This document shows positions 2,563 to 48,233 of a DNA stretch of 64,000 bases, one piece after another. Position numbers and translations under genes: made by a program. The notes below the pieces were generated by a model. That model ran no database searches. It was given only the letters and a program-made list of their open reading frames with translations, and was not told the DNA's origin. Each line of letters begins with the position of its first letter. Within the stretch, counting starts at the first letter, position 1. The stretch comes from Minisyncoccia bacterium (GTDB lineage: Bacteria > Patescibacteriota > Minisyncoccia > Phycocordibacterales > UBA9973): positions 78,179 through 142,178 of the forward strand of contig JBAQFC010000010.1 of the NCBI GenBank assembly GCA_049287045.1. The letters are read 5' to 3'.

Positions 2563-2835
2563 ATGCCAACAGAAAAAACTTACCCCTATACATTCGACCA
2601 GTTAAGACAATTCAAAAAAGAAATACAGGAAGCAGGAGGAGTAGATGAACTGATGTTCAGAAAAAGTGCTTTGAAAAGAAGAAACGGAATGATAAACATT
2701 GTTACCTATCCTGATATTGAACGATACAAAGAAAAATATTTAACAGGAGTATATGAATCACTTCGTCCTATTTATACAACAGAAGTACCTTATGTTTTCT
2801 GGAGTAAATTATACGAATTATTAAACAGAATATGA
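2563..2835 (+). CDS. Hypothetical protein.
   Basis: ORF. Its 4-nt overlap with the downstream methylase gene suggests translational coupling. Confidence 0.4.
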   Translation: MPTEKTYPYTFDQLRQFKKEIQEAGGVDELMFRKSALKRRNGMINIVTYPDIERYKEKYLTGVYESLRPIYTTEVPYVFWSKLYELLNRI

Positions 2836-3623
2836 AACCACCTTTAACATACTACGGAGGAAAACAACAGCTCTCTAAACACATTATTTCCCTTATACCT
2901 AAACACAACCTATATTGTGAACCTTTCTTTGGTGGTGGTGCGGTATTCTTCGCTAAAGAACCATCAGCAGTTGAAATAATCAACGATACCAATGGAGAAC
3001 TCATTAATTTTTATAAGGTTATCAAAACAAAATTCAGCCAGCTTGAAAAAGAAATCAGTTTGACACTACACAGCAGGGAATACCATCAGGCAGCAAAGAT
3101 TGCATTAGGTTACCCCCATTTGTTTGATGAAATAAAACGGGCATGGGCTGTTTGGACATCGGCAAACCAAAGCTTTGGTTCCATTCTCGGCGGTAATACC
3201 TGGAGATGCGATTTTAAACAAAATACTTCTGCCAGGCAGTTAAGAAATAAAAGAGAAAACTTCACTAACGAATATGCAAAACGATTAGAACAAACCCAGA
3301 TTGAATGCAGGGATGCTTTAGATGTTATTCGTTTAACAGACAACAAGGATACTTTCTTTTATATTGATCCGCCTTACTATAACTCTAATATGGGGCATTA
3401 TAAGGGATATACAAAAGAGAATTTTGAAAAATTACTTCAAGTGCTTTCCGGAATTAAAGGAAAATTTTTGTTAAGTTCCTACCCCTCTGAAATCCTTGAT
3501 AAGTACATCAAAAAACACAAATGGCAGACTAAAGAGATTGATAAACAGTTGTGTTTATCTGCTTATAAGATTGTGAAAAAGAAAAGAAAAATTGAGGTGC
3601 TGACGGGGAATTATGAGATATAG
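2832..3623 (+). CDS. dam: DNA adenine methyltransferase, Dam/D12 class (N6-adenine). Orphan, with no adjacent restriction enzyme.
   Basis: 'YYGGKQQL', 'EPFFGGGAVFF' (SAM-binding FxGxG) and catalytic 'DPPYY'. Confidence 0.85.
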   Translation: MKPPLTYYGGKQQLSKHIISLIPKHNLYCEPFFGGGAVFFAKEPSAVEIINDTNGELINFYKVIKTKFSQLEKEISLTLHSREYHQAAKIALGYPHLFDEIKRAWAVWTSANQSFGSILGGNTWRCDFKQNTSARQLRNKRENFTNEYAKRLEQTQIECRDALDVIRLTDNKDTFFYIDPPYYNSNMGHYKGYTKENFEKLLQVLSGIKGKFLLSSYPSEILDKYIKKHKWQTKEIDKQLCLSAYKIVKKKRKIEVLTGNYEI

Positions 3624-3980: not shown

Positions 3981-4856
3981 TTATTTATTTTTGGATTTAT
4001 GACTATTTCTGATACAAATTATATCATAGATTCCGTCTGCTACACCCTGCAATATGGCTAAATCATATTTCTCGTCAAACATACTTTTTTCAGAACAATC
4101 GACACACAGGAAACCTAATAAGTTATAAACTTTGTCTTGTTCAATATGTAATGGAATTATAGGCACCACAAGTTCACTTTTATATGGCAATATGCCATCT
4201 ATATAGCATTCTTTGCTTGTGTTTTCATAGTCCTTTGAGGAAGGAATATCATTATTAATATAGTAAAGTTTTGATTTCTTGTTTTTAGTTAGATGGGATA
4301 AGATATTATTGAAACATGTATTTGCAAATATTAAATGTTGAGTGTTTTGATAAGTTTTAGTATCACGGTGTAACGAATTTTTATCTCTGCATAGATTTAC
4401 AACTTCGGTATTTGCTGTAATTACAGTCTCGATGGCGACTTTTATAGAAACTGAACATTTTGAATTCGTTTTTTTATCATAAATCAGTTTTAATTGGTGG
4501 CACATAAAAGCCATAGTTGCAATAAATTTATCATCAGGAATTTCATCAAGTTTACGAAGCCAGTGAACCCATGAAAACGCTTCTTTGAGGAAAATTATAG
4601 CATCACCATAAACACTCTCTTTGTATAGATAATACCAATACTTGTATATATGTTTAAAGAAAAAAAGGACAAATCGGAAAAGGTATATTCCCAAAACGCC
4701 TCCTAGTCCAATAACAATAGAATTTTGAGGTTTTTGATCAAAAAAATTCTTTGCAATAAGAAGAATAGCAATAACTGAACCCGCCCCTCCACCAATAAAA
4801 TTCCAAAATTTTTCAGATATAGTATCCTTAAATGATTTATAAAAAACTTCTCTCAT
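3981..4856 (-). CDS. Membrane protein with two N-terminal TM helices and a cytoplasmic C-terminal domain.
   Basis: Hydrophobic segments 'GGGAGSVIAILLIAKNFF' and 'IVIGLGGVLGIYLFRFVLFFF'. No recognisable catalytic motif. Confidence 0.45.
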   Translation of the reverse strand: MREVFYKSFKDTISEKFWNFIGGGAGSVIAILLIAKNFFDQKPQNSIVIGLGGVLGIYLFRFVLFFFKHIYKYWYYLYKESVYGDAIIFLKEAFSWVHWLRKLDEIPDDKFIATMAFMCHQLKLIYDKKTNSKCSVSIKVAIETVITANTEVVNLCRDKNSLHRDTKTYQNTQHLIFANTCFNNILSHLTKNKKSKLYYINNDIPSSKDYENTSKECYIDGILPYKSELVVPIIPLHIEQDKVYNLLGFLCVDCSEKSMFDEKYDLAILQGVADGIYDIICIRNSHKSKNK

Positions 4857-5019: not shown

Positions 5020-6243
5020 TTACGATTTTGCAATCAACTTTTTAAGCAGATTGATTACTTCATTCAACTTCTCGGCATTATCTATAATAATGGTGCAACT
5101 TGGGCCATTCCAGAATTTCTGAACTTTCTCCGTGAGTGTTTTAATCTCATGGTGCTTAATGTTCTTTCTTGTTTCTGCTTCCGGATTTACAACAACCAGG
5201 GAGATTCTTTTTCTACCGATGCTCATAAACGCAAGATTTTTGTTCTTCCGGATAGAGATATAATACTGCTTTGGGTTAAACTGAACCAATTCATCAGCTT
5301 TCATCAATTCAGTTTTAATCTGGCTATAAATATCAAGGATTACATCGGAAACATCTTTTAAATGGTCTTCCTCTGTGGATTTAAGAACTTTTTCTTTCAC
5401 TTTATCCGTTCCTTTATCAATATCTGCGAAATCAGGGTATATAGTACATAAGGTTTGCCGATTGATTGAGAATTTTCTCAATACTATCGGTTTTATTAGT
5501 CTCCCCCAGGTATCAATATAAACCTGCATAATTTCCGGCAGTTCCTGAATAGTATCATCTGTGATTAATAAAACAGGCGGTTTACCTGTAAGAACACGAT
5601 TGATAAATTCTGGAACCTCTTCTTCTCCAATAAAGGATTTTAACTTCTTTTTGAAATGGTAATTCTTGTTAACTATTTTACAAATAGGTTCAATAAAGGA
5701 AGTCTGTAAGTCTTTGTTACTAATCTGTTTGAAAAATTCAGTCATTCGTGTGAAAAGATGCCCATAGAAATCTTGTTTTGAAAGCATTGTTTCAATTAGG
5801 TAACATTTGGGTTTTCCCATGTCTTTAAAGTCAAACAGGATAGCATCAGGGATATATGTACCTGAAAACTCAATGCCTGTTTTAACTCTTGTTTCAATTA
5901 GAAGGGTAGTATCACCGAAAAGCACTTTTCCATTTTGTAAAATAATTTCTTCAAATTCCTTTTTTGATTTGAATTTCTTCGCAACAGGTGAAGTTTGATT
6001 TTCATCAGCATCAAAAGGTGGTTCAGTTGTTTGTAATTCCAGTGTATCTCCATTAAGGATATACACTTTGCTTAAATCAATTACCGTATCCGGCAATTGA
6101 TTTTTAATCTGTGTTTCTGTTTTTTTCATGGTTAAGGGTTTGGTTATTATTTTTTCAAAGAGCGAACTAGTGGACATCATAGCTCTGAAAAAATAATTGG
6201 CAAGAAGGAAATCAGTAGAATACAGAATGGCGAAAATGTCCAA
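5020..6243 (-). CDS. Hypothetical protein. True start may lie downstream of the annotated Met.
   Basis: Long ORF with its own terminator. Weak PD-(D/E)xK-like pattern '...IPDAILFDFKD...CYLIETMLSK', not secure. Confidence 0.45.
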   Translation of the reverse strand: MDIFAILYSTDFLLANYFFRAMMSTSSLFEKIITKPLTMKKTETQIKNQLPDTVIDLSKVYILNGDTLELQTTEPPFDADENQTSPVAKKFKSKKEFEEIILQNGKVLFGDTTLLIETRVKTGIEFSGTYIPDAILFDFKDMGKPKCYLIETMLSKQDFYGHLFTRMTEFFKQISNKDLQTSFIEPICKIVNKNYHFKKKLKSFIGEEEVPEFINRVLTGKPPVLLITDDTIQELPEIMQVYIDTWGRLIKPIVLRKFSINRQTLCTIYPDFADIDKGTDKVKEKVLKSTEEDHLKDVSDVILDIYSQIKTELMKADELVQFNPKQYYISIRKNKNLAFMSIGRKRISLVVVNPEAETRKNIKHHEIKTLTEKVQKFWNGPSCTIIIDNAEKLNEVINLLKKLIAKS

Positions 6244-6666: not shown

Positions 6667-6939
6667 ATGAAACTTACCAAAATTTACTTTGATGCATTCA
6701 AAAGCCTATTGAACAAAGAACTTGAAATTAAATATGATTGTGTCGGATTTGTTGGAACAAATGAATCAGGAAAATCAAATGTATTATCTGCAATTAATGT
6801 ATTGAGCAGTAATAGAAAATTGACTTCTTTAGACACGCCTAAGATGTCTAAAAGCAGTAATCCATCCTTAAGATTTCAATTTAAACTTGATGAGAATGAA
6901 AATAAAGAAATAACAACACTAGCGTTGCGTTGTTTCTAA
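6667..6939 (+). pseudogene. N-terminal Walker-A fragment of an OLD-family/AAA15-type ABC ATPase. Likely the disrupted 5' part of the downstream nuclease gene.
   Basis: 'VGFVGTNESGKSNVLSAI' is a P-loop. The ORF stops after 90 aa, too short to be an ATPase alone. Downstream 6940-7289 is AT-rich with stops in all frames. Confidence 0.45.
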
Positions 6940-7289: not shown

Positions 7290-9425
7290 ATGCCAAAAGT
7301 AAATGATTCATATAAAATCAATGTTGGAGCCTCTTTTTTGCCACTTGAGAAAGCAATTATAATTAAAGACTCCAATGTTTTCATTGATAATAAACACCAC
7401 GAAACTTATATTGAAATAGAAAATATTTCTGAACTAATTACAGAAGAAGAAACTGCAATAAAAAGTTTTCAAGAAAAACTATTTAATTTGCCAATTGACT
7501 CTGATACGAATCCTGTTGAAAATAGCTTGACTCCAATTCAAGAAATCAGCCCTGAAACAATTAAATTAGTTGCTCCAAATGATATTCAACCAGGTTTACT
7601 GAAAGAAGAACGAGAATTAATTGCCGCTGAAATTATCAAGAGAAGAGCAAAAATTGAATTATTATTACGAAGTAAAAACAATTTATTTTTAAAAATTAAA
7701 GATTTTGATTCTGCCACCATTATTGATTCTGCCTCTACCACAATTTCAAAGGCAGATTCGGAAATATTAAGACTTGGAACAGAGCTCAAAACGACCGAAG
7801 TAAAACATAATGAATTGAAGGCTTTACCAACTCCCGATGAACTTCAGAAAGTTGAGTTAACGAATTCCACACAAACCATTAATGATATTAAATTAAAAAT
7901 AAAGGATTTTGAGAACAAGAAAGTTGAATCTCAAAAACTTGTTGATGATCTAAAACAGCCTTTAATCGAAAAATATACAAAAGACATTTCTGAACTTCAC
8001 AAACATATATATGGCTTAATTCAAATTCCATTAATGAATTTTTTACCAAAAATTGTTTATTGGGAACATGGTGCAAAATATATATTGCAATCTGAGACAT
8101 TGTTTACGGAACTCCTTAATAAAACAAGCTTAGAAGATATTTCCAGACCACTTGTAAATGTTTTTAGAATCGGGTTGTATATTCATACAATCGAGGAACT
8201 AAAAGAAAAAATCATTGAAATCCAAATCGACCCTGGTGAGCGAAGCAGATATGAAGCTACTTTAAATGAAAAAATTAACAAGTATATTAAAAAAGTCTGG
8301 TGTGATTATGACCAAGATTTAAAAATTTCATTGGAAAAAGACCAAATTCGAATTCAAATTTTTGACCCAAGTAAAAATGGTGCAAGTTTCTATAATATGG
8401 AAGATAGAAGCCAAGGATGTAAAACATTTTTGTCTTTTTTATTAACTATTGGTGTAGAAGCGGAACATGGTGTAATTAAAAACACGATTCTTTTGTTAGA
8501 TGAACCAGAAACACACTTGCATCCTTCGGGAGTGAGATTTATGCTTCAAGAACTAATTAAAATATCAGAAAAGGGTAATTTAGTCATCTACGCAACCCAC
8601 TCGATATTTTTAATTGATAGAAATAAATTTGATAGACATGTTATTCTTAAAAAAGAAAAAGAGAATACTACTATTAAACCATCAAATGTTGGAAGAATTG
8701 GTTATTTCATGCAAGAGGAGGTATTGTATGGCACATTGGATTTCAATTTAAAAAATGATTTTTCATCTACAAATGAATATAATTTTGTATTCGAAGGCGA
8801 TGGGGATGTTATTCTCTTTGAACATTTTTATGACAAAATTCTTTCAAAAGATGCAAATAGACCTTATCAATTAAAATCAACTTCTTTCCATCAAGGAGGC
8901 AAATGTTCTGACATCCAAAAATATTTAACCAATAGACCAATTCAACTCGGAACAAAGTGGGTTTTTATCTTAGATAAAGACAATGCTGGAGATGGTCTTA
9001 AAAAATTCATAGAAGGAAAATATAAAAATTATTTAAATAGTGACATTTTTGTATTTCAATATGACAATAAGGGGAAGAAATCAAAAGAAATAGAGTTAGA
9101 GGATCTTTTTGCCCCACAATTTATAATAGAAACATATTTAGAGACTGCAAAACAGCTTACTTGTTCAATTGATGAAATCGCTTTAAAAAAACTTGTAACT
9201 GAAGATGACAATTATATTACTTACAATGATTCTATCATTTCAGATCATATTATTGGAGAAAGGAAGTCTGAATTTAAAGGAAAATTTAAAGAAATATTTA
9301 ATACAAAAATTAAATTAAGTTGTGAAGGGAATAAAAATGAGGTGAGTTTTAAAAAAATATTTCCGGAATATTACAAATGGGTAACAGAAGTTACTGCGAA
9401 ATTAAATTCCTGCAACAAAGCATGA
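7290..9425 (+). CDS. OLD-family ATP-dependent endonuclease: ABC-ATPase signature, Walker B and H-loop plus C-terminal TOPRIM. No Walker A in this ORF.
   Basis: Signature-like 'RSQGCKTFLSFLL'. Walker B 'LLLDEPETHLHP'. H-loop 'YATHS'. TOPRIM-like 'VFEGDGDV' and 'ILDKDNAGD'. Confidence 0.65.
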   Translation: MPKVNDSYKINVGASFLPLEKAIIIKDSNVFIDNKHHETYIEIENISELITEEETAIKSFQEKLFNLPIDSDTNPVENSLTPIQEISPETIKLVAPNDIQPGLLKEERELIAAEIIKRRAKIELLLRSKNNLFLKIKDFDSATIIDSASTTISKADSEILRLGTELKTTEVKHNELKALPTPDELQKVELTNSTQTINDIKLKIKDFENKKVESQKLVDDLKQPLIEKYTKDISELHKHIYGLIQIPLMNFLPKIVYWEHGAKYILQSETLFTELLNKTSLEDISRPLVNVFRIGLYIHTIEELKEKIIEIQIDPGERSRYEATLNEKINKYIKKVWCDYDQDLKISLEKDQIRIQIFDPSKNGASFYNMEDRSQGCKTFLSFLLTIGVEAEHGVIKNTILLLDEPETHLHPSGVRFMLQELIKISEKGNLVIYATHSIFLIDRNKFDRHVILKKEKENTTIKPSNVGRIGYFMQEEVLYGTLDFNLKNDFSSTNEYNFVFEGDGDVILFEHFYDKILSKDANRPYQLKSTSFHQGGKCSDIQKYLTNRPIQLGTKWVFILDKDNAGDGLKKFIEGKYKNYLNSDIFVFQYDNKGKKSKEIELEDLFAPQFIIETYLETAKQLTCSIDEIALKKLVTEDDNYITYNDSIISDHIIGERKSEFKGKFKEIFNTKIKLSCEGNKNEVSFKKIFPEYYKWVTEVTAKLNSCNKA

Positions 9426-9569: not shown

Positions 9570-11264
9570 TCATTGTAATAAAGATCGCCAATAATAAGGG
9601 AAAACCATTGTCCTATAATGTCGAGATGCAAGGAGCCCCATAAAAGGGAGTCCGTTTTTAAAAATTTCCAGTTCTAATTCAGGGCTTAAATTCTTCATAG
9701 AAATTTCTTGAACCATCTCGTCCTTATAGTCTTCTATGTTGTCATATAGTTCAATACTGTGTTTCGTTTTTCCGTGATTTTGATCTGAATTTTTAATGAA
9801 AAGTGATTTTTCAATTTCAATATCAGGATACCAGAGCTGGAGATTGATTTCAGGAAAATGTAATTTTACCATTCTCCGAATATCACTATATAAATCGGAT
9901 GAATTTAAAATTATACACCATTCAGCTAATACGGTCAATAAAATTGATGATTGAGGTTTTTCGGTTTCACCATAAACCTTTGCTTCAATTAATTTATCAT
10001 GGTTTTCATAAAATAATGGAAAAAAACTTGTTCTTGAATAAGTTATTTCCATTGTAATTATTATTCGCTTAAGCCATATCCTTATTGTATCTAAGCGATC
10101 TGTTTTATATAAAAATAAAAATCCTAAATTGATTTCTATGGAATGTGAATCATAAACTGGATAATTGCAACCAGCGTTGTTATTAATAAATTCGTCGATA
10201 GAATTTGAAAAAACTGAAATCATTGAATTAATACTATCCACATGAAATTTAATTACATCATTATTATCTTGAACTTTTAGGGTTTCCCCCAGGTAATAAT
10301 AATTTAATCCAATCGTTGACATAATACCAATATATTCGTAGCAAACTAAACTATACTCAGTCTGGTTTGCCCTAGACACGCTTGCAAACGAATCTTTAAC
10401 AGCGCAATATTTTATTGTTTTCTCGGCATACGAATGTTGGATATTTATGAGAGTTTCAGTTATCCCAATAAATTGTCGAATAAGTTTATTGTCATTCATA
10501 CCATGTTCCTCTAAAATAAATCTCCAGGCGAGCAAAGTCGCTTTTTCAGCAGTGAGCAAGGCATTCCTAATATTATTTTGTTCTTGCGCCCATACGAAAA
10601 TTATATTTGTACAAACATTGAGCAAACTTAATCTTTTATATTTTTCAGAAGTCTTAGCTTGAACAGATTTGTATTTAAATAAAATGTTATTAAAAAGTTC
10701 AACCACATGAGATAAATCATAATCACTAATGTCAATGAAAGCAAGGGACTTTCTTAGCAAAAGCAAAGAACTATCGGGGAGTAAGGATTCATTAAAAAGA
10801 TATTGTTCGGATAATAATGTTATTTTGTCTACATCCCAATCTACTAAATGGATTTTTTTCGTCGAATTTTTATTTTTATATCCATTCCATGCCGGAATTG
10901 CAGTCTGCTCAATAATTCCATTAAGAGCGAAAATAATTTTGATTGGTAGCTTTTTATATTCTTTTGCAATATTCGAGGGGATATATACATCAAATATATC
11001 ATCTAAGCTTGCTTTAATATCATTTTTACCTGAGTTCCAATTATTCCGGTCTAGATTACCTCTTTTCACTGAAAGTAAAAATATTTTTTTTATACCATCT
11101 TCTGGATCAATTCCAACGGCCATAATATCTACGCCATGTTGGCGGCCCTTTTGAGGGCGTGATTTGGGCTCCATATTCATATGAAACAATAGATTTACTA
11201 GTAGGGTATCTAGCTCACCATCTTCTTTCAAAATTGTTATATAGTCCTTAATAATTGCTTTCAT
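9570..11264 (-). CDS. Hypothetical 564-aa protein, second gene of a two-gene operon. N-terminus has a possible Mrr/PD-(D/E)xK-like fold.
   Basis: 'GRQHGVDIMAVG...KKIFLLSVKRG' resembles the D...(E/Q/S)xK nuclease core. ATGA start/stop overlap with the upstream gene at 11264. Confidence 0.45.
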   Translation of the reverse strand: MKAIIKDYITILKEDGELDTLLVNLLFHMNMEPKSRPQKGRQHGVDIMAVGIDPEDGIKKIFLLSVKRGNLDRNNWNSGKNDIKASLDDIFDVYIPSNIAKEYKKLPIKIIFALNGIIEQTAIPAWNGYKNKNSTKKIHLVDWDVDKITLLSEQYLFNESLLPDSSLLLLRKSLAFIDISDYDLSHVVELFNNILFKYKSVQAKTSEKYKRLSLLNVCTNIIFVWAQEQNNIRNALLTAEKATLLAWRFILEEHGMNDNKLIRQFIGITETLINIQHSYAEKTIKYCAVKDSFASVSRANQTEYSLVCYEYIGIMSTIGLNYYYLGETLKVQDNNDVIKFHVDSINSMISVFSNSIDEFINNNAGCNYPVYDSHSIEINLGFLFLYKTDRLDTIRIWLKRIIITMEITYSRTSFFPLFYENHDKLIEAKVYGETEKPQSSILLTVLAEWCIILNSSDLYSDIRRMVKLHFPEINLQLWYPDIEIEKSLFIKNSDQNHGKTKHSIELYDNIEDYKDEMVQEISMKNLSPELELEIFKNGLPFMGLLASRHYRTMVFPYYWRSLLQ

Positions 11265-13189
11265 TAGTTCAATGATTCGTATCTCATTCTAGAACGGAAT
11301 ATTTCAAAGCCTGCTGGATCAATATATTCAGCCCTTGGCATTTCAAAACTGAAGTTTACCGACCGCATACGGCCTTCATCTGTATAACCTTTGCTATTTT
11401 TTGAAAACCAAATTGGCCCTGATCTCAAAACTATATTTTTTGCTAACTGCTCAAATATATTTTCCTTACGTGCTGTATTCATCCTTTTTGATTGCTGGTT
11501 ATCAAAAGCATTATTAAAACTACGTTTTCTTGTTTCAGAACCATTTAATTCTTTTAAGATTGGTAAATCTTTTAGATCATCATAATACTTATCTACTCTA
11601 TTAACAATTCTTTGTAATAATTTCTTTTTAGTTCCCTTACTAATACTAATTTCTGGTTTGATGAAAACAGTTAATGTAGAAGGATATGTATAGCATATAT
11701 AATCTACGAATAAAGTTTCTAAATTATTTGCTTGCTGTTTTAAATGTTTAGAATCTAATATTGATAGCGTTAAAGATGCTAATGGCTCCTTTGCATATAT
11801 AAATCCCATTATGCTTCCAATAGTCTTTCCAATTTCTAAATCAGAATAGGAGTTAAGAATCACACAATCTAGTTTAAAAATATTCTTACCTTTTCTAGAC
11901 GTAATACTCATTAATGCATTCATTAAGTTTTTATCAGAACGGTTAAACCATGGTGTAATAATTGAGCAGAACCAGGGAAAATAACTCCCTATAAATTTAG
12001 ATATTATAGGTTCCAAGCTATTGATTTCTTGTCCATTTACTAGCCATGATTCTAAAAGTTTTACGACATATTCCTTTTCACCCATTTTAAGGGCATCTGT
12101 CATGTGCCAATTTACAAAATTCATAAGCTTTATATTGTCACATTTATAAGAAGATAAATTAAATGCAAGCTGTTTAATATTTTCAGTGGAGTTTTTATTT
12201 GAAGCTGAACGCCAAACAAATTCTGAGATTGGATACCTATAAGAAATTTCTTCTTTTTTTGAAAGTTCTATCAATTTCCTTTGTGAATCAAGACAAAATT
12301 TTGAAAGTGTTATAAGGCTGTATGTTACCATATATCTAATACTCTCTCTCTCATCATTAATAAAGACAATTATGTTATCGTATAAAGTTTGAGCAGTTTT
12401 AGTATTGTCTTTATAATCTAAACTACTAATCATTTGCAGCCCTGCGATTATATTCTCAATTTTATTGGTCTGTAAAAGATCTAATATTTTATCCTGAAAA
12501 ATTTTTATGTTTTTATATTTATAAAGTCCCTCAACTAAAGCACCTAGATATTTAAGGATAACTTCGTTTTTAGGTAAGAATAAATTTTCATAAAGTGTTT
12601 CAGCAAAACTAAGATTCAAATTAGGTATGTCTTTTAACAAGGTGAAAATCTCGTTTTCGGCTCCATCACCTGTAGTTTTTAAGCTAATAAACTTTAGAAT
12701 TTCACAAAACTCCTCGATTGAAAGATTAAGATAAGGGTAAACATTAATAAAACTATGGTAATTTGCCCAAAAATCATTTTTAGGATCGGTTAGAATATCG
12801 ATTATTTTTTTCTTTTTGACTTTGTTTAAAAGAAAAGTAAAATATTCAACTACATATTCTGGTTTCATTTTAAACCTATTATCGAACTTTAGCTTATTAA
12901 GTTGATTGAAGATTTCGAGATGATTACTTGTTTCAACTTTGGACAAATAATATGCAGCAACGAAAAAATTAATAACAGCTGTATTGCAAAAAATTAATTT
13001 TGAATCTTGTTTTGTGACAAATGGAGGGAAATCCTGAAAGTCTTTACTGTTTTTTTTGATTGAAATAAAAGAATCTCCCTTTTCAAAACATTGCATAGCA
13101 TATTGCCCCAATAATTTTGAATTGTCGGAACATTTTCCAACATAAGAAACTAGAACTTCAAGTTCTGATTTGGTAAAAATTAAAATCAT
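11264..13189 (-). CDS. Hypothetical 641-aa protein, first gene of the two-gene operon. Alpha-helical repeat-like, no P-loop.
   Basis: Long ORF. No Walker A/B, nuclease or other motifs recognised. Confidence 0.45.
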   Translation of the reverse strand: MILIFTKSELEVLVSYVGKCSDNSKLLGQYAMQCFEKGDSFISIKKNSKDFQDFPPFVTKQDSKLIFCNTAVINFFVAAYYLSKVETSNHLEIFNQLNKLKFDNRFKMKPEYVVEYFTFLLNKVKKKKIIDILTDPKNDFWANYHSFINVYPYLNLSIEEFCEILKFISLKTTGDGAENEIFTLLKDIPNLNLSFAETLYENLFLPKNEVILKYLGALVEGLYKYKNIKIFQDKILDLLQTNKIENIIAGLQMISSLDYKDNTKTAQTLYDNIIVFINDERESIRYMVTYSLITLSKFCLDSQRKLIELSKKEEISYRYPISEFVWRSASNKNSTENIKQLAFNLSSYKCDNIKLMNFVNWHMTDALKMGEKEYVVKLLESWLVNGQEINSLEPIISKFIGSYFPWFCSIITPWFNRSDKNLMNALMSITSRKGKNIFKLDCVILNSYSDLEIGKTIGSIMGFIYAKEPLASLTLSILDSKHLKQQANNLETLFVDYICYTYPSTLTVFIKPEISISKGTKKKLLQRIVNRVDKYYDDLKDLPILKELNGSETRKRSFNNAFDNQQSKRMNTARKENIFEQLAKNIVLRSGPIWFSKNSKGYTDEGRMRSVNFSFEMPRAEYIDPAGFEIFRSRMRYESLN

Positions 13190-13220
13190 TCCAATTATAA
13201 TTGAATTACTACAAAACTAA

Positions 13221-13248
13221 TAAAAAACCCCCACATTTTGTGTGGGGG
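13221..13248 (-). terminator. Intrinsic-terminator-like hairpin in the 5' leader of the minus-strand operon (possible attenuator).
   Basis: 8-bp GC stem CCCCCACA/TGTGGGGG with TTTTTTA on the minus strand. It lies 32-60 nt upstream of the 13189 start codon. Confidence 0.35.
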
Positions 13249-13505
13249 CGGTCTTTCAGAGAATTATCCCTGCCCTGATACGATTTCAAATAAATCATAC
13301 CCGGTAAAAGCTATTATAACTCTGGTTTTTAAATTTGCAAGTGAGGAGAAATAACTTTCAAAAAACATTTCTCTAATCTTCCTAAAAGTCATTTAAAATG
13401 ATCTGAATATGTGAAAATAAAAGGTAATTTTGAAGAAGATATTGAAAAATCGATGAGTTCGTTAATCTTTTATAAATAAAATTATTGCAAAAATTACAGC
13501 ATCAA

Positions 13506-16600: not shown

Positions 16601-17318
16601 AAATAAATTTGATGAACTTGCCAAGTTAACAAATGAATACTTAGACAAACTTTTTATAACAGGAATAAAACTTGGCACCCTGTCTGCGGAGCAACGGGAC
16701 GAATTTGTTGTTGAATTGACAAAACATGATAGACAAAATCTTTCAGTAAAAAAACTTTATGAAGATGAATTCCCTTCAGCGAGGTCAGAAAATAATGATC
16801 AGTTGGATTTTGCCACCATTGATGGAGATTTGGTATTTAAAGACGGGGATATTGCTCTCGAAAACCAAAAAGGGGAGATTAAAATAATTGAGCAGATACA
16901 AAAAAATAAAACCGTTACGCTTGAAAATTCAACTGAAACTGTAGCTTTTGAGAAACTGACAGATGGAGAAATAAGTATACTTAGAGGTTGTGTTAATGAT
17001 TGGGACGAAGCAACTCCAAGAAAAATTAGAATATTCTATTATCGGTATCTGATAGCAAAAAATTTATTACTAAATCGATACCAAAAACTAAGTTGGAAAA
17101 ATATATGGCTTCATCCGAAATACAGTAGCGTATTTGCCCAGCTTATTATTAAGTATGGTGAGTTATATAACCCTTCTCTAATCACGGAGCATAGATTGAG
17201 GACAAACACTTTGCCACTTAATGAAGTTGTAAAAATTGATATGTTTGGTGACTTTACCGTGAAAAACCAAGATTATATTGAAATGTTGAAAATTTTAGAA
17301 ATGGTAATTGCCTATTGA
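13689..17318 (+). CDS. KAP-family P-loop NTPase (1209 aa) with intra-domain TM helices and a long N-terminal extension containing a possible TIR-like segment.
   Basis: Walker A 'GKWGRGKT'. KAP-type Walker B 'ILFVEDVDRC'. TM insert 'ISVILFALSITIGGIAQWEWVFALIGIPMVGSALIVIL'. N-terminal 'SIHICFVESDKPIAEKL...NYFVFVKS' is flavodoxin/TIR-like (weak). Confidence 0.75.
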   Translation: MGIMTTDKCFITSLPVKNIPSNIDAYEYLLNFNDREFTLRYDGRADWNTIIKGDAKIVLQSMLFNNRWPIDTDSVITPELVERTLRIVKHPKEFEDKVSYYLEYAYEAGGKEYNAVIYKLSDYEIAYSKDENEFTRIIQALISKQFISLLPAHSSSVKAEGSFELLEPGRDMVKNIQSKRQPKIITITPTGKKIIKKIHLPLNERPSIHICFVESDKPIAEKLRDLFLENSFTTSLTEIKEETLAYSSVFNLRDSIEQRKSNYFVFVKSHSSDINNGIGSAIDIAIATHRNSPDKARFIYIASADDSKYSTRPLLEDYLKQFFDIRILDERERMLLDIFSDWKTRQNKILPAEKLTSTVLLLKWLWKIFTVSQKNPITITYSQIKEFISSEEQLKSFLSELENQQLITMQLYDGLDVDQYRYEITLMNNIPDWLSREISNIEQSNAGKLKSINESNKVYNFPKVSLTDNELFWLKISYEKFLKNETFNLHEELAKHWDKLPKDFDPSQIDQRLLIGGYTITLLGIWHVNPSSEIFGNTDKTIFIIRELLIEKSNRNVITSKDIQAKNSALTNDDILKSITILSQFRGFMHQHGHNPETFESNISIRDGSSYDKFRQYNGIEELVNEFFKKNKSQYSDSNETNQSTKEFKLKNIVDSLNLNDRAFQKKSQVSLRDKTQIDTILGVKEIAKEIAEIIDIMPNEKGMMMGIFGKWGRGKTVFMSQIWENLKEIKLKNEVQYERVDFHAWQYQETPASWAYLYERLAEKYYKKPEKIFTKDWWEYWNRIIKLNIKRQGYTPIIKSISVILFALSITIGGIAQWEWVFALIGIPMVGSALIVILSKFKKEYSTKAFDLIKKYGLKHSYKDTMGIQAEIQKEVVHLVKTWIPVVKVEKGSSDEKYKKIILFVEDVDRCAEEKIIQNIDALRIMLEDEEVAKRVIVIAAIDEQVLKRAIKAKYFKLLDCENYSNGAGTNKFDELAKLTNEYLDKLFITGIKLGTLSAEQRDEFVVELTKHDRQNLSVKKLYEDEFPSARSENNDQLDFATIDGDLVFKDGDIALENQKGEIKIIEQIQKNKTVTLENSTETVAFEKLTDGEISILRGCVNDWDEATPRKIRIFYYRYLIAKNLLLNRYQKLSWKNIWLHPKYSSVFAQLIIKYGELYNPSLITEHRLRTNTLPLNEVVKIDMFGDFTVKNQDYIEMLKILEMVIAY

Positions 17319-17988
17319 TTTAAACAAAAAAGTTTTGAATTCTATCTTAAAATTTAAACAAATGAAAGTTTTATTATCCTCATATTATCCATTACGTCAT
17401 ACCGCTGAAGGCAAAAAGGCAGTGCAATTGCATGAGCTAAAACCTTATATTGATGGATCATGTAGAAGAGAACCGGATTTTGAAAGTAAATTGCCAAGTA
17501 TTACTTCTTTATGTAGAAAAGAAAAACTTATTGGAAGATTAGATGAGGGTGATATTGTCATTTATATTACTAATGGTGGAAAGGGTAGGCGAAAATTAGT
17601 TGCTATTCTTGAAGTGTTTAAAATCTTTGATTCTCATATTCAAGCTGCGACATACTTTAATAGCGTTGGTATAGTACTACCAAATAACTGTATTGTTGAC
17701 GGGAATTTATGCAAGCCATATAACCAAACTCATGGTATGGTTAGTTGTTACAATGAATGGGGTAATATGGATATAAACTTGTGGGATGCAGAATATAAAA
17801 AAAGAGCAAGAGACTTAGGAAAATTTGCTATTTGCAAAGTATGGAAAAACGAACTTGAGTTAAATAAGCCGAGAAATATATCAAACAAAGAGTTAACAAA
17901 AATATTTGGAAGAATACCAGGAACCATGAACCCACCTAAACTAACAGATGAAGAATGGGGGAAATTTAAAACGTGGTTAGGTAAATAA
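17308..17988 (+). CDS. PUA-like (EVE/ASCH-like) domain protein, overlapping the KAP NTPase gene by 11 nt.
   Basis: 'GDIVIYITNGGKGRRKLVAILEV' resembles the EVE/PUA beta-core. Overlap suggests translational coupling. Confidence 0.35.
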   Translation: MPIDLNKKVLNSILKFKQMKVLLSSYYPLRHTAEGKKAVQLHELKPYIDGSCRREPDFESKLPSITSLCRKEKLIGRLDEGDIVIYITNGGKGRRKLVAILEVFKIFDSHIQAATYFNSVGIVLPNNCIVDGNLCKPYNQTHGMVSCYNEWGNMDINLWDAEYKKRARDLGKFAICKVWKNELELNKPRNISNKELTKIFGRIPGTMNPPKLTDEEWGKFKTWLGK

Positions 17989-20904: not shown

Positions 20905-21183
20905 ATGACAGTCGAACTTATTTCATTAGACCACATCAATGAACAATACTTCCAATATGTTGACAAAAGGAGTTGTAAGAATTGGCTCTTAGCAAAAGGC
21001 TTATCAATAATAAAATTGGGAAAGAAATATTTTGTTAAGGAAGAGCAATTTAATGCAGTTCTAAATAGGATAAGCAACAGTGGTAAAACAATTTCAGCAG
21101 TAAAGTCTAAATCAGTAAAAAATCGATTAACACCATACAATGAAATCTATAATGACTTGCTGAGGAATCTAAACGATGTATAA
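20905..21183 (+). CDS. Excisionase-like HTH DNA-binding protein (Bacteroidetes mobile-element type).
   Basis: Small HTH protein ('NWLLAKGLSIIKLGKKYFV') directly upstream of, and overlapping, the integrase gene. Confidence 0.5.
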   Translation: MTVELISLDHINEQYFQYVDKRSCKNWLLAKGLSIIKLGKKYFVKEEQFNAVLNRISNSGKTISAVKSKSVKNRLTPYNEIYNDLLRNLNDV

Positions 21184-22603
21184 TGCCACACACCAAATGA
21201 GTAAACCGATTAAAATACCACAAAACATAAAAGGATTGAAATTATGGTGTCCGGCATGCAGTGAAGAAATCGGAACGACAAACAGGTGCAAGCAGACGGG
21301 TGGATTAGCGACAAAATGTCCAAATGCGGAACGCCATGTATACAGGGTAGTTGTATATGAACCGGGGAGTGGAAAGCGGAGGGTAAAAATAATTAAGGAA
21401 AAGAAAATGGATTTAGTGATAAAGGCAGCCGTTTTATTCAGGGATGAAATTAAAAACGGGAAATATATAGAGCAAGCTGAAATACCACATAATTATGAAG
21501 AAGAAAAAGGAAGTTTAAAATTAATAGAAGCGATGACTTTGTATAGCGCATTTTTAGATTGTAAGCATGGAGCAGCCCACACATTAAGGTCGAGAACGAT
21601 GGGTCACAAAAAAGAATTAATGCGAAGCATTATACTGTTTGCCAAGGCAATTAAAAAACAGGGAATCGATCCTGAACGGTTAAGAATTGAAAAAATAACA
21701 CAAGAGCATATAGGCTTTTACCACACATATTTATTGAGTGATAAAAAGTATTCCAACTGCACATATAACAATCGTATGAATAATTTGCGAGGATTCATTA
21801 ACTACCTGAACAAGCATGAAGGACTGGATATTAATAATCCCTTTAATACGGTTCAAAAAAAGCCAACCAGTACGATTATTAAAACAATTGAACCGGAAGA
21901 GTTTAATGCCTTACTAAACATCATTACACCTGGACGGGGCATACAAACATTATCAACAGGAGAGAAGAAAAATCATTGGCACCCCTTTCTAAAGGAATCT
22001 TACATATTAGGATTATTAACGGGTTTAAGAAGAGAACAGCTCGTTACCATGCGGTTCAAGGACATTCAGGAAGATGCCCAGGGAGTACCCCTGATTATCG
22101 CATCTAATAACCTAAAGGTAAATAGAATAATGAACGCGGAGGAAACAGGTGATATAAGAATTACCCCAACACCGGTAACGCCACAACTTCGCCAATTTTT
22201 AGAAGATGAATTAAATTATGCGGCGAATCGTGACAGTGATAATTTTCTGATAGCGCCCAATAGTGAACTTAAAAGAAAGACGATAATGGATATTATCAGT
22301 AAAAGTTTTACCCACTACTGGAAACAGCTTGATATGGATGTTTCAAAAGACATCAGTTTTGCAAACTTAAGAAAAACGTATATCACAAAAATGACATTGG
22401 CAGTAGGTGATAACGCTAGGCATCTGACAGGACATGCTAATCAGGAAGTATTAAACAAGCATTATATAAATAAAGAATTAATCGCACGTGTAGCAAGCAA
22501 TCATAACATTTTCCCTGAACTTGATATGGAAGCAATAAAAAGAAAAAACGAAATCGAAAAACTCAGATTACAACAACAACAAAATATTTCAAAAGACAGA
22601 TAA
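21176..22603 (+). CDS. Tyrosine site-specific integrase/recombinase.
   Basis: Box I 'TGLRREQL'. Box II 'LRKTYITKM...LTGHANQEVLNKHYI' supplies the R, H-x-x-R, H and Y catalytic residues. Confidence 0.85.
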   Translation: MYNATHQMSKPIKIPQNIKGLKLWCPACSEEIGTTNRCKQTGGLATKCPNAERHVYRVVVYEPGSGKRRVKIIKEKKMDLVIKAAVLFRDEIKNGKYIEQAEIPHNYEEEKGSLKLIEAMTLYSAFLDCKHGAAHTLRSRTMGHKKELMRSIILFAKAIKKQGIDPERLRIEKITQEHIGFYHTYLLSDKKYSNCTYNNRMNNLRGFINYLNKHEGLDINNPFNTVQKKPTSTIIKTIEPEEFNALLNIITPGRGIQTLSTGEKKNHWHPFLKESYILGLLTGLRREQLVTMRFKDIQEDAQGVPLIIASNNLKVNRIMNAEETGDIRITPTPVTPQLRQFLEDELNYAANRDSDNFLIAPNSELKRKTIMDIISKSFTHYWKQLDMDVSKDISFANLRKTYITKMTLAVGDNARHLTGHANQEVLNKHYINKELIARVASNHNIFPELDMEAIKRKNEIEKLRLQQQQNISKDR

Positions 22604-25378: not shown

Positions 25379-26833
25379 ATGATAACAAAAATCTTTGATA
25401 TGATTATATCTGTAATCGAAGGCACACTCAAAACTATCTTTGAAGTATTGGAATCAATGGTGAGCAGTCTGTCTTCAAAGCAAAACGAATACAAAGCGGA
25501 TTTTGCATCCCAAGGGACTTTACTTTCAAGCTGGAATAATGGTTTTTGTTTAACTGGAAATAAAAACCTTTCTTTAAAGCATTCTTTCCAAAATGCCCTG
25601 ATTATAGGAGGTACAGGAGCCGGTAAATCCAGTGTTGTATTAATACCTTGTCTTTTCTCAATGAAAGGATCTTTTATCGTCCATGATCCATCCGGTGAGT
25701 TATATACCAAAAGTGCGGGCTACCTAGAACAAAAAGGATACGAAATTAAAATATTGAATTTCGCACATCCTGAAATTTCTTCCAACTATAACCCATTATC
25801 AAGAGCAAAAAACTCTACCGATATACAAAAAGTTGCTTCCATGTTGGTCGAAAATTCATTAGGTGGGGGCAAGAAAGATCCTTTTTGGAATAATCTTGCC
25901 ATTTCATTAATAACCGTGCTGATTCAAATATTAAAGACTCAGCCTGAAGAATATCAGAATCTGTATAACGTGCGAAACCTTTTAAATTCCATGGGAGGCA
26001 ATCCCGAAGCAGTGGATGCGCTCTTTAGTAAGAATGCAAGTGAGAAATTATTTTATGAATATAAATCATTCCTGGCTTATGATGAAAAGGTTACCAGTGG
26101 AGTAATAGCCACATGCAAAGCTTCACTACAAATTTTCAATGATGAAAATATCGGTAAAGTAACATCAGGTGACAACATTCCATTTGAGGAGTTCAGAAAT
26201 AAACCGACTGTACTGTATATTCAAAACAGTGTAGCAGATCAGCGCTATTATAGTACCTTAACCAGTATCTTCTTTGAGCAACTATTTTCTTACACACTTT
26301 CCCGTTTTCCAAAACAAGATGAACAAAATATTTTCTTTCTGATTGATGAATGCAGTTCACTGCATTTACCAACGCTCGCGCTTGCTACGGCAAATGTGAG
26401 AAAACATAGTGCAGGAATAATGCTGATTATACAAGATTTTAATCAGATAGTTCATCATTATGGAAAATATGAAAGTGATGCAATCCGAGCAAATTGTTTC
26501 GCCAAATTATATTTTACCGGACAAAGTTTAGAAACAGCCAAAGAATTAGAACAAATATTAGGCAAATATGAATTCAAGGACAAAGATGAAAGAAAAGTTG
26601 TCCGACCATTGATGACCAATGATGAAATAAGAACAATGAAAGAAACTCGGGCAATTCTTGTCTGCGGACATTATCCACCAATTCTTGCAAAGCTTCATCC
26701 ATATTATAAAAGCATACGATACAGAAAGTACAGTTTAATTCCGCCCCCAACCAGTAAATCAGCAAATGACATTGATATTGTTCCAGTATTGCCATTACCC
26801 ATAACAGCAAAAATCAATGAGCAAAAAAAGTAA
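25379..26833 (+). CDS. Type IV coupling protein, TraG/TraD/VirD4 family (Bacteroides MobC-like).
   Basis: Walker A 'GGTGAGKSS'. Size and family-typical context upstream of the relaxase. Confidence 0.75.
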   Translation: MITKIFDMIISVIEGTLKTIFEVLESMVSSLSSKQNEYKADFASQGTLLSSWNNGFCLTGNKNLSLKHSFQNALIIGGTGAGKSSVVLIPCLFSMKGSFIVHDPSGELYTKSAGYLEQKGYEIKILNFAHPEISSNYNPLSRAKNSTDIQKVASMLVENSLGGGKKDPFWNNLAISLITVLIQILKTQPEEYQNLYNVRNLLNSMGGNPEAVDALFSKNASEKLFYEYKSFLAYDEKVTSGVIATCKASLQIFNDENIGKVTSGDNIPFEEFRNKPTVLYIQNSVADQRYYSTLTSIFFEQLFSYTLSRFPKQDEQNIFFLIDECSSLHLPTLALATANVRKHSAGIMLIIQDFNQIVHHYGKYESDAIRANCFAKLYFTGQSLETAKELEQILGKYEFKDKDERKVVRPLMTNDEIRTMKETRAILVCGHYPPILAKLHPYYKSIRYRKYSLIPPPTSKSANDIDIVPVLPLPITAKINEQKK

Positions 26834-29939: not shown

Positions 29940-32768
29940 ATGAAAAAATCAATTCTTCGTCTAGCTACGATCCTTTTACTAACTGTAAACTGTTTGTTGC
30001 CCAACTTTTCTTTCGGACAATACACCAAGTTACACGATTTTAACGGTACAACTGGAAACCAACCTTTTGGCTCTCTTATCTCTGACGGAACATTTCTCTA
30101 TGGAATGACAGAATACGGCGGAACAAATAGTGCGGGAGCCATCTTTAAAATAAAGCCAAATGGAACAGGGTATTCAAAACTGCTCAATTTTTATAGCACA
30201 AATGGAAGTTATCCTTCGGGAGATCTTATTTCTGACGGAACATTTCTATTTGGAATGACGGAGTACGGTGGAGCGAATAATTTTGGAACCATTTTTAAAA
30301 TAATGCCTGATGGAAGTGGATATACTAATCTACTTGATTTTGATGGCACCACAAACGGGAAATATCCGACCAGTTCTCTTATTTCTGATGGAACCTTTCT
30401 ATATGGAATGACAGGAAAAGGCGGAATAAATGGCAAGGGAGTGGTATTTAAAATAAAACCTGACGGAACTGGGTATTCAAAACTGCTCGATTTTTCTGGT
30501 ACAGCGAATGGAAGTTCTCCTCTTGGCTCTCTAATTTCAGATGGAGTCTTTCTCTATGGAATGACACATGATGGCGGCTCTAGTGATTATGGAGTACTTT
30601 TTAAAATTGATTCCAATGGAACAGGATTTACTAAACTACTTGATTTCACAAACACAAATGGAATGTATCCATATGGTTCGCTTATCTCGGACGGTGTCTT
30701 TCTCTATGGAATGACTTCTGTTGGAGGTGCAAACAGCATGGGCGTGATATTTAAAATAAAGCTTGATGGAACAGGATATTCAAAACTATTTGATTTCTCC
30801 GGTGGTGCAAGTGGAAAAGTTCCAAATAGTTCCCTAATTTCTGATGGCACCTTTTTGTATGGAATGACACAATACGGTGGTACATCTGACAATGGTGTAA
30901 TTTTTAAAATAAAACAGGATGGAACCGGATTCTCAAAGCTACTTAATTTTGCAGGTGCTACAAACGGGCAGTATCCCACTGGCTCATTTGTTAAGAATGG
31001 AACCTTTCTATATGGAATGACAGGCCAGGGCGGTACAAACAATAAAGGAATAATATTTAAGTATAATCCATATTGTACAGCTATTATATTCAATCAAACA
31101 AATGTAATCGCAGGGGATAGCAGTTTAACCGTTGGCACACATACTTATACCACGAGTGGAACATATACCGATGTATTTAGAGCAGTCAGCACATGCGATA
31201 GCATAGTAACAACTATATTAAACGTATTAGCAACCACTCAATCAACTACTATCTGTTCTGGACAAAGCTTAACCATTGGAACTCACACTTACACAACAAG
31301 TGGAACGTATCACGATACTCTAACTTCTTTTGTATATGGTCTAGATAGCACAGTAACAACTCATTTAAGTGTACTGGCAATTACTCAATCGCGCACTATC
31401 TGCCCGGGACTTAACATAACTGTTGGAAACCATATTTACAACACAACTGGCACTTATCAAGATACTCTAACTTCTATAGTCTATGGCTGCGATAGCACAG
31501 TTACAACTCATTTAACTGTTTTATCTGATTCCGTTTCGTCTTCTTCACAAACAGTCACAATCTGTTCAGGTCAATCGCTAACTATAGGAACAGCAACTTA
31601 TACAACAACTGGCACTTATACTTACCATTTCACGGGCGGTGCTTGCGATAGTGCGGTAATAACTAATTTAACGGTATTGCCAGCCAATAACTCAATTCAA
31701 TGGCCTTCTATCTGCTATGGGCAAAGTGTGGCCGTAGGAAGCCATATATACGTCACGACCGGAACTTATTACGATACCTTAACATCCTTTTATGGCTGTG
31801 ATAGTTTAGTTACCACACATCTAACTGTATTATCCGGCTCAGTTGCATCTACCACACAAACCTTTGCCTTATGTGCAGGTGAATCTGTAACCGTTGGTAC
31901 AGCTACCTATTCAACAAGTGGTACTTTTACTTATCATTTTATTGGCGGTGGTTGTGACAGTGCGGTTATAACTCAATTAACGATATTTCCTGCGTCTAGT
32001 TCATTAACCCAAAATCCAACTGTTTGCTTCGGGCAAAGCTTAATTGTAGGAAATCATACTTACACCACAACTGGAACTTATCTGGATACTTTAACTTCCT
32101 TTCATGGTTGCGATAGTATCGTAGCCACTCATTTAACTGTTTTATCAGATTCCGTTTCTTCATCCTCTCAAACACTCACAATATGTTCGGGTCAATCAGT
32201 AAGCGTTGGAACAGCTACATACACAACAAGCGGAACATATACTTACCATTTTATAGGTGGAGGATGTGACAGTGTGGTTACTACATATTTAACGGTAAAT
32301 AATATATCTGTTTCAGTTTCAGGAGGAATATTCACTGCCAGTGCTTCACCTGCAACTTATCAATGGATAAGTTGTAGCAATGGAAATACACCACTTGAGC
32401 AACAATCCGGGCAAAGTTTTACAGCCAATACCAATGGTAACTATGCTGTTATTATAATTCAAAATGGTTTAGCTTGTACTTCAACCTGTCATAATATAAC
32501 TAATGTAGGTATTGCTGAAAATAGTTTAACAGCTGATGTAAATATTTATCCTAACCCCTTTACCTCTCAAACTACTATTGCATTTGCACAAGAGCAAAAA
32601 AACACATTTATAAAAATAATGGATGTGTTGGGTAAAGAAGTGAAAACGATAAACTTCTCCGGAAAGGAATTAATAATCGAAAAAGAGGGGATGCAGGAAG
32701 GAATTTATTTTCTGCAAATAATTGATGTAAATAAAAAAGTGCTGAATAAAAAAGTCATCATACAATAA
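29940..32768 (+). CDS. T9SS-secreted repeat protein: signal peptide, about 8 beta-propeller-like repeats of 47 aa, about 10 Cys-containing repeats of 45 aa, and a T9SS C-terminal sorting domain.
   Basis: Repeats 'GTGYSKLLDF..LISDGTFLYGMT..GG..G.IFKI.PDG'. Repeats 'C.GQS..VG..TYT.SGTY.DTLTS..GCDS.VTTHLTVL'. CTD 'NIYPNPFTSQTTIAF...GIYFLQI'. Confidence 0.8.
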   Translation: MKKSILRLATILLLTVNCLLPNFSFGQYTKLHDFNGTTGNQPFGSLISDGTFLYGMTEYGGTNSAGAIFKIKPNGTGYSKLLNFYSTNGSYPSGDLISDGTFLFGMTEYGGANNFGTIFKIMPDGSGYTNLLDFDGTTNGKYPTSSLISDGTFLYGMTGKGGINGKGVVFKIKPDGTGYSKLLDFSGTANGSSPLGSLISDGVFLYGMTHDGGSSDYGVLFKIDSNGTGFTKLLDFTNTNGMYPYGSLISDGVFLYGMTSVGGANSMGVIFKIKLDGTGYSKLFDFSGGASGKVPNSSLISDGTFLYGMTQYGGTSDNGVIFKIKQDGTGFSKLLNFAGATNGQYPTGSFVKNGTFLYGMTGQGGTNNKGIIFKYNPYCTAIIFNQTNVIAGDSSLTVGTHTYTTSGTYTDVFRAVSTCDSIVTTILNVLATTQSTTICSGQSLTIGTHTYTTSGTYHDTLTSFVYGLDSTVTTHLSVLAITQSRTICPGLNITVGNHIYNTTGTYQDTLTSIVYGCDSTVTTHLTVLSDSVSSSSQTVTICSGQSLTIGTATYTTTGTYTYHFTGGACDSAVITNLTVLPANNSIQWPSICYGQSVAVGSHIYVTTGTYYDTLTSFYGCDSLVTTHLTVLSGSVASTTQTFALCAGESVTVGTATYSTSGTFTYHFIGGGCDSAVITQLTIFPASSSLTQNPTVCFGQSLIVGNHTYTTTGTYLDTLTSFHGCDSIVATHLTVLSDSVSSSSQTLTICSGQSVSVGTATYTTSGTYTYHFIGGGCDSVVTTYLTVNNISVSVSGGIFTASASPATYQWISCSNGNTPLEQQSGQSFTANTNGNYAVIIIQNGLACTSTCHNITNVGIAENSLTADVNIYPNPFTSQTTIAFAQEQKNTFIKIMDVLGKEVKTINFSGKELIIEKEGMQEGIYFLQIIDVNKKVLNKKVIIQ

Positions 32769-47999: not shown

Positions 48000-48233
48000 T
48001 TAAGAATCCACTTTTTTATTTTCTAAAATTGATTTATTAATGCTTGTCAGCATTTTATTAATGCTCTCTTTTTCAAAATCTGTTATACCTTCTTCAAATT
48101 CACATTCTTCAAATTTATTTTTTTTGAGTAAAGATTTAATCATTTCAACATATGAGAATTTATCTTCTGCAACTCCGTTGCGGATTAAAATCTCAATGTT
48201 TTGCTCTTTGTCTTTTCTGAAAATTAATTTCAT
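48000..48233 (-). CDS. Small hypothetical protein, overlapping the PHP-ATPase gene stop (ATGA).
   Basis: 77-aa ORF with overlap suggesting coupling. Confidence 0.4.
   Translation of the reverse strand: MKLIFRKDKEQNIEILIRNGVAEDKFSYVEMIKSLLKKNKFEECEFEEGITDFEKESINKMLTSINKSILENKKVDS

Follow-up and report, generated by a model that had tools for sequence, protein, structure and literature searches.

An Olokun gene pair in a defence- and mobile-element-rich stretch of a contig binned as Minisyncoccia

The gene pair and its family

The subject of this analysis is a pair of adjacent open reading frames (ORFs) in a 64,000-nucleotide stretch of DNA (the window; positions 78,179 to 142,178 of contig JBAQFC010000010.1, assembly GCA_049287045.1, filed under a Minisyncoccia bacterium), which we assign to the anti-phage system Olokun. 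An initial annotation, made from the sequence alone, had reported both ORFs on the minus strand, and our ORF listing returned the same coordinates and lengths, given here in window positions:

11264..13189, minus strand: oloA, 641 amino acids, the non-enzymatic helical-repeat partner of Olokun
9570..11264, minus strand: oloB, 564 amino acids, the nuclease effector of Olokun

The G+C content of the oloA/oloB region is about 30%, and a random codon on its minus strand is a stop with a probability of about 0.085. At this local base composition, a frame of such length would stay open by chance with a probability of about 1e-22 for the 564-residue ORF and about 1e-25 for the 641-residue ORF, and both ORFs are thus genes. 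They meet at the junction ...AAC TAA TGA AAG..., where the last A of the oloA stop codon TAA (base 11264) also begins the ATG of oloB. The initial annotation had described this as a four-base ATGA overlap, which is the commonest junction form among related loci (27 of 65); here the junction is the one-base form TAATG, and the translational coupling that the overlap was taken to imply stands. Together, oloA and oloB are a two-gene, translationally coupled defence operon.

Both proteins were placed by profile searches against PADLOC. OloA matches PDLC03925 (E=3.2e-54, 183 bits), with residues 125-639 aligned to profile positions 56-593 of 596, and OloB matches PDLC03926 (E=1.3e-139, 465 bits) with residues 1-563 on positions 1-554 of 556; neither matched a second family in PADLOC-DB. 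These strong matches identify the locus as Olokun, and of the identity of the gene pair we are close to certain. Pfam and NCBIfam scans gave no significant family for either protein, which explains why they went unplaced in the initial annotation. When profiles of the two proteins were searched against PDB sequences, OloB stayed unmatched and OloA returned only designed helical bundles, which we treated as compositional matches.

The pair had been put forward as the best candidate in the window for a previously undescribed system. That claim does not survive the finding that both proteins belong to a characterised and already published one: the discovery of Olokun is credited in the literature to the screen of Millman et al. 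2022, and PADLOC routinely reports the system, Flavobacterium genomes included. By its sequence, the locus is a new Bacteroidota copy of a known system held in the standard defence-system databases. Its interest is therefore mainly that of a correction, the most promising candidate for novelty having already been named by PADLOC and probably by DefenseFinder as well. What it adds is the placement of a FokI-like nuclease domain at the N-terminus of OloB, a peculiarity of the active site that runs through the family, and a C-terminal OloB domain of unassigned family.

The pairing of the two genes is conserved wherever it can be seen. We scanned one genome per species with search patterns drawn from 12 of the closer OloB sequences, and found OloB relatives at 68 loci, all of them in Bacteroidota, a restriction that arises partly because the patterns came from close relatives. 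Three of these loci are cut by contig ends and were left out of the pairing count. A single-sequence search with the window OloA found the ORF directly upstream of oloB at 49 loci, and an iterated profile search found an OloA-family ORF abutting or overlapping oloB at all 65 loci with upstream DNA. The initial annotation had proposed co-conservation of the pair as a check, and the arrangement in the window, with oloA upstream, co-directional and adjacent, is that of every one of these 65 loci. PADLOC assigns both OloA and OloB in five further pairs from the related loci, distant ones included. Olokun is thereby documented as widespread and strictly pair-conserved in Bacteroidota.

For OloA, homologues were gathered at these loci from the ORF preceding oloB and through an exhaustive HMMER search, which gave 498 cluster representatives at E<=1e-3; a protein search for OloB gave 74 homologues. 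More distant OloB homologues (22-32% identity) lie on 35 plasmids from Klebsiella, Rhizobium, Agrobacterium, a cyanobacterium and others, 18 of which are predicted to be conjugative, and a megablast search of the locus against plasmids returned no match. The locus L072 is a fully intact relative, in which the gene upstream of oloB is 47% identical to the window OloA over its full length. The relative whose OloB is closest to that of the window (68% identity) differs in its oloA. At L069 (6300-8004) and L070, this gene was called as an 82-residue ORF and a 467-residue ORF, with N-terminal stops in the translated frame, which suggests that the gene there is N-terminally truncated or decaying beside an intact oloB.

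The window operon can also be set against PfOlokun, the Pseudomonas system. Both consist of oloA followed by an overlapping oloB, and both have an OloB spanned end to end by the family profile, a PD-(D/E)xK nuclease, a helical-repeat partner ('adaptin-like' in the window copy where it is confidently modelled), no nucleoside triphosphatase (NTPase), and a setting in a defence island or mobile element. The window copy differs in its probable Bacteroidota host and in an OloB that is only distantly related to the plasmid-borne proteobacterial and cyanobacterial copies (about 22-32% identity). Its OloA is also of the long form, common in the family, with about 110-140 N-terminal residues beyond the profile match.

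Domains of OloB and OloA

The two proteins divide into the following regions:

10797..11264, minus strand: OloB residues 1-156, FokI-like PD-(D/E)xK nuclease domain
9573..10775, minus strand: OloB residues 164-564, all-alpha domain of about 400 residues, unassigned family
12770..13189, minus strand: OloA N-terminal region (residues ~1-140), found only in long OloA forms and beyond the PADLOC profile match
12200..12742, minus strand: OloA residues ~150-330, predicted HEAT/ARM/adaptin-like alpha-solenoid repeats
11270..11572, minus strand: OloA C-terminal region (residues ~540-640), the best-conserved part of the family

An AlphaFold2 model of OloB, built on an alignment of 36 sequences, reached a mean predicted local distance difference test (pLDDT) score of 89 and a predicted template modelling (pTM) score of 0.85. 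Foldseek searches with this model ranked MspJI, FokI and the SPARDA nuclease at the top, with probabilities of 0.77-0.99 across chains and E-values of only 0.03-0.4, and the nuclease domain is akin to the non-specific cleavage modules of enzymes such as FokI and BspD6I. Across the 36 sequences, which reach down to 24% identity, residues E14, E17, D19, G40, G44, V45, D46, G51, K67, R73 and W76 of this domain are invariant; GVD46 lies before strand 2 and VK67 at the end of strand 3. The segment GRQHGVDIMAVG...IFLLSVKRG, which the initial annotation had likened to an Mrr/PD-(D/E)xK core, is part of this nuclease core and holds the family-invariant D46 and K67, so that, with the nuclease fold modelled, the likeness was correct in substance. 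The large domain that had been noted after the core corresponds to the all-alpha region.

The relationship to better known nucleases is one of fold. OloB shares only its nuclease fold with the cleavage domains of the type IIS enzymes FokI and BspD6I and with the type IV enzymes MspJI and AspBHI, with no homology at the sequence level. Unlike FokI and MspJI, it carries no recognisable DNA-reading or SRA-like domain, the remainder of the protein being all-alpha; the operon has no cognate methyltransferase, and the nuclease motif lacks its middle acidic residue. Hachiman, which pairs the DUF1837 nuclease HamA with the helicase HamB, likewise has two genes and a PD-(D/E)xK nuclease in complex with a larger partner, and Olokun is grouped with Hachiman and other nuclease-NTPase pairs in a 2025 preprint (bioRxiv 10.1101/2025.07.10.664194). 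The initial annotation had found no match to Hachiman and no P-loop in the 641-residue protein, and on both points we agree: a motif search found no Walker A motif in OloA or OloB, OloA has no helicase motifs, PADLOC gave no HamA or HamB match and Pfam gave no helicase. This leaves no place for regulation through ATP hydrolysis or the unwinding of DNA.

The structure of OloA was predicted from 3 sequences. Residues ~150-330 are mostly modelled at pLDDT 80-91 as regular helical hairpins, and this confident part matches HEAT, importin and adaptin solenoids. Where confidently modelled, OloA is thus predicted to be a HEAT/adaptin-like alpha-solenoid, in keeping with the alpha-helical-repeat look that the initial annotation had remarked on.

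The N-terminal region of OloA (~1-140) is modelled with low confidence and varies across the family, which has forms of about 530 and about 630-690 residues; its positions are occupied in only ~2-13 of 26 aligned OloA sequences. The exhaustive HMMER search found the long form, with its additional ~110-140 residues, to be common. In the window copy this region is conserved at the protein level with L072 and with representatives of 637-638 residues, which align from residues 5-13 on, and it is therefore coding. An internal start at Met108, which would give a short form of about 530 residues, was considered and rejected, since residues 1-110 are conserved with L072 and other long forms; the start at 13189 is preferred for this reason.

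The C-terminal ~100 residues carry an invariant E547, a nearly invariant E616 and a conserved EMPR..IDP motif, along with the conserved residues P/S550-551, R554, F579, G591, K597, S614, P618, R619, D624 and R632; the region (~540-640) is modelled at pLDDT below 50. An ABC-3C CTD11 domain (PF20277) was tried for this C-terminus and set aside, the match being below threshold (E=0.041; 14.9 bits where 27.7 are required) and recurring weakly in only 2 of 26 OloA homologues. The operon also has no ABC ATPase, which sets it further apart from ABC-3C systems. A Pfam scan of the 26 homologues gave scattered sub-threshold matches only.

Proposed mechanism and alternative readings

The one biochemical study of Olokun that our literature search brought up is the preprint noted above, which describes the system as a complex of the adaptin-like OloA with the PD-(D/E)xK nuclease OloB (bioRxiv 10.1101/2025.07.10.664194). 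There, PfOlokun forms a complex of ~278 kDa by mass photometry, modelled as a 2:2 assembly of OloA and OloB in which the OloB nuclease domains are adjacent. The complex degrades genomic DNA of phages T7, SEC phi17 and SPO1, nicks plasmid DNA and leaves E. coli genomic DNA uncut, and each Olokun operon tested protected against at least one phage (bioRxiv 10.1101/2025.07.10.664194).

What the analysis shows for the window pair is the family it belongs to, the pairing of its genes, the folds of its domains and the residues conserved in them, and the pair is very probably an anti-phage system. Its complex stoichiometry, its DNA cleavage and substrate, and its activity in phage defence would be those of the published systems. 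Under this reading, one transcript would carry oloA and oloB, with their translation coupled at the TAATG junction, and their products would, by homology to the Pseudomonas system, assemble into a 2:2 heterotetramer. Two OloB nuclease domains would then lie side by side in the manner of a FokI dimer and introduce double-strand breaks into invading phage DNA. OloA would act as a scaffold and as a regulator or sensor, and OloA, the helical domain of OloB, or both may limit cutting to infection or to foreign DNA. A sensing role for OloA is speculative.

Several points weigh against this reading. The canonical acidic residue of the (D/E)xK motif is absent from OloB, where position 65 is S, T, V, A, P or L across the 36 sequences, and the geometry of the active site is thus only putative. 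The OloA model is poor overall, with a mean pLDDT of 55.5 and residues 400-641 below 50. OloB is only ~22-32% identical to the proteobacterial and cyanobacterial plasmid copies. The preprint reports that PfOlokun was active only at 1 uM protein, that cleavage in vitro matched defence in vivo only partly, and that an OloB active-site mutant lost complex formation (bioRxiv 10.1101/2025.07.10.664194); from this last result, dependence on the nuclease cannot be cleanly separated from assembly. With these points taken into account and the mechanism transferred by homology included, we consider it highly probable that the locus is an intact Olokun anti-phage system. The individual mechanistic details carried over to this copy merit moderate confidence.

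One alternative is that the operon is an abortive-infection or toxin-antitoxin-like module, in which OloA would restrain a promiscuous, toxic OloB until infection frees or activates it, and host and phage DNA would be destroyed together. Such a module would fit the close coupling of translation in an operon led by the partner gene, the likeness of the OloB nuclease to the non-specific modules of FokI and BspD6I, and the nicking of plasmid DNA by the PfOlokun complex in vitro. However, the purified complex degraded several phage DNAs and spared E. coli genomic DNA, a sign that it may tell phage DNA from that of the host, and the literature on Olokun yielded no report of toxicity for OloB alone. 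We regard this alternative as unlikely, if worth keeping in view.

A second possibility would leave the identification as Olokun in place and add to it, and it draws in part on the region upstream of oloA, which holds the following features:

13221..13249, minus strand: intrinsic-terminator-like hairpin with T-run, 37 nucleotides upstream of the oloA ATG
13212..13219, minus strand: TAGTTTTG, putative promoter element between the hairpin and the oloA ATG, read from the sequence
13313-13340, minus strand: sigma-70-like site TTGCAA-16-TATAAT, upstream of the hairpin

The hairpin lies in a divergent intergenic region, with oloA on one side (minus strand) and a KAP NTPase gene on the other (plus strand). 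It has a 9-bp stem with 6 G-C pairs and a 5-nucleotide loop (13249-13227, minus strand) followed by TTTTTT, and folds at -19 kcal/mol (z = -3.2 against shuffles). In the 4.5-kb stretch around it one terminator-like site was found where 1.6 +/- 1.1 are expected in shuffled sequence, which is within chance. No sizeable minus-strand gene lies upstream of the hairpin, only a 42-codon ORF (13264-13392, minus strand) that ends 15 nucleotides before the stem. The TAGTTTTG box (13219-13212) fits the Bacteroidetes -7 promoter motif TAnnTTTG, known from Bacteroides promoters. If this box is used, the hairpin stands upstream of the promoter and outside the leader; the sigma-70-like site at 13340-13313 would allow the opposite reading, with the hairpin in the oloAB leader.

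The initial annotation had proposed that the hairpin serves attenuation-type control. The hairpin is real, and the attenuation does not follow from it, its position and sequence being unconserved in related loci. Alignment with the upstream region of L072 showed no convincing similarity and no conserved leader, and the criteria that pick out the window hairpin find none in L072. Only 21 of 62 related loci carry a terminator-like hairpin on the same strand in the 250 nucleotides upstream, at distances of 22-223 nucleotides, and in many of them it has the look of an ordinary terminator belonging to the gene before. When the upstream region was scanned against Rfam, the sole match was to NsiR1, below threshold (21.9 bits, gathering score 39, E=0.065) and due to the hairpin itself. 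With no conservation and occurrence at the level of chance, attenuation is unproven here and not a feature of the family.

The proposal would be that Olokun in this lineage carries further features: either the hairpin, the promoter-like site (13340-13313) and the 42-codon ORF form a regulatory leader or small RNA that gates oloAB, or the OloB C-terminal domain is a LanC-like alpha/alpha-barrel whose conserved polar pocket (E240, D372, R548, H549) detects a ligand or protein of phage origin. Each of these would give Olokun a further layer of control or sensing, and we think it improbable that one of them is at work.

The nuclease fold of OloB might instead be catalytically dead or serve only in DNA binding, with defence exerted by, for example, the OloB C-terminal helical domain or OloA. 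The missing middle acidic residue gives this idea its footing. However, none of D46, K67, E14 and E17 varies among the 36 diverse sequences, and E14, E17 and D19, near the OloB N-terminus, are on sequence the obvious candidates for the missing carboxylate. Relocation of the acidic residue onto a helix is well known in PD-(D/E)xK enzymes, as in the SxK sites of the Cfr10I/NgoMIV type. The PfOlokun complex, moreover, cleaves DNA, and a dead OloB is accordingly very doubtful. The absent residue and the invariant E14, E17 and D19 together give a concrete guide for mutagenesis.

Service to a mobile element, for instance as an addiction or exclusion module of a conjugative element in the window, is similarly far from probable. 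The window does encode a coupling protein similar to TraG and holds an integrase-like gene, and OloB homologues occur on 35 plasmids of which 18 are predicted to be conjugative. However, defence systems are often carried by mobile elements, and these observations are hence compatible with a role in defence; the neighbouring genes are defence genes, and the Olokun operons tested gave defence against phages. Finally, a previously undescribed two-gene defence system, as first supposed, could appeal to the empty Pfam and NCBIfam scans, the want of a PDB sequence match for OloB and the label 'hypothetical' on these proteins in public records, but the PADLOC matches to OloA (E=3e-54) and OloB (E=1e-139, full-length), in the right gene order and to a named, published system, leave it almost no probability.

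Genomic neighbourhood

Around the Olokun pair, defence genes and mobile-element genes abound, and the initial annotation had called the surroundings a defence island; OLD-like, KAP NTPase, PDC-S18-like, methyltransferase and TraG genes are among them. Those nearest the pair are as follows:

6667-6939: OLD-like AAA_15 N-terminal fragment, 90 amino acids, with Walker A
7290-9425: OLD-like AAA_21/Toprim part, 711 amino acids
13689-17318, plus strand: KAP-family NTPase, 1209 amino acids, with weak similarity to QatA and PifA

The two OLD-like parts are ~350 nucleotides apart, and each of the three frames in the intervening DNA is interrupted by stops, in agreement with the disrupted OLD nuclease of the initial annotation, and the split OLD-family ATPase-Toprim gene is probably a pseudogene. 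On the other side of the pair, the initial annotation had named a KAP NTPase and an EVE protein. The KAP NTPase is confirmed; its gene overlaps with its 3' end a 226-residue ORF (17308-17988) that has no match in Pfam, NCBIfam or PADLOC, and the label 'EVE' for this ORF is unsupported by these databases. The KAP NTPase and the 226-residue ORF form a pair that is harder to account for than oloA and oloB.

Further defence-related genes lie on the far side of the OLD-like parts. The gene at 5020-6243 (minus strand) encodes a 407-residue protein with a DUF5655 domain, which PADLOC matches to its candidate system PDC-S18 (E=4e-12). A D12-class type II DNA adenine methyltransferase adjoins a 291-residue ORF with no Pfam or PADLOC match (2832-3623, plus strand, and 3981-4856, minus strand), and the two together may represent a restriction-modification pair, or the methylase may be an orphan. 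The stretches 21176-22603 and 25379-26833 encode an integrase-SAM-like protein and a TraG/VirD4-type coupling protein (E=2e-59); given these two proteins, the defence genes probably lie on or beside an integrative conjugative element.

The host of the locus is itself in question. The exact OloB sequence is held at NCBI under a 'Minisyncoccia bacterium' metagenome-assembled genome, and a fragment with identical OloA sequence is filed there under 'Candidatus Magasanikiibacteriota'. Two proteins in the window (29940-32768 and 34988-37546) carry a type IX secretion system (T9SS) Por_Secre_tail sorting domain. From these sorting domains and the Bacteroidota origin of all 68 OloB loci, we conclude that the contig is probably a mis-binned Bacteroidota sequence.

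Two minus-strand genes farther along the window also deserve mention. One, at 37899-40511, encodes an 870-residue STAND NTPase with NB-ARC and TPR domains and no PADLOC match, and the other, at 48230-50548, a 772-residue protein whose C-terminus matches PADLOC Ppl (E=2e-17).

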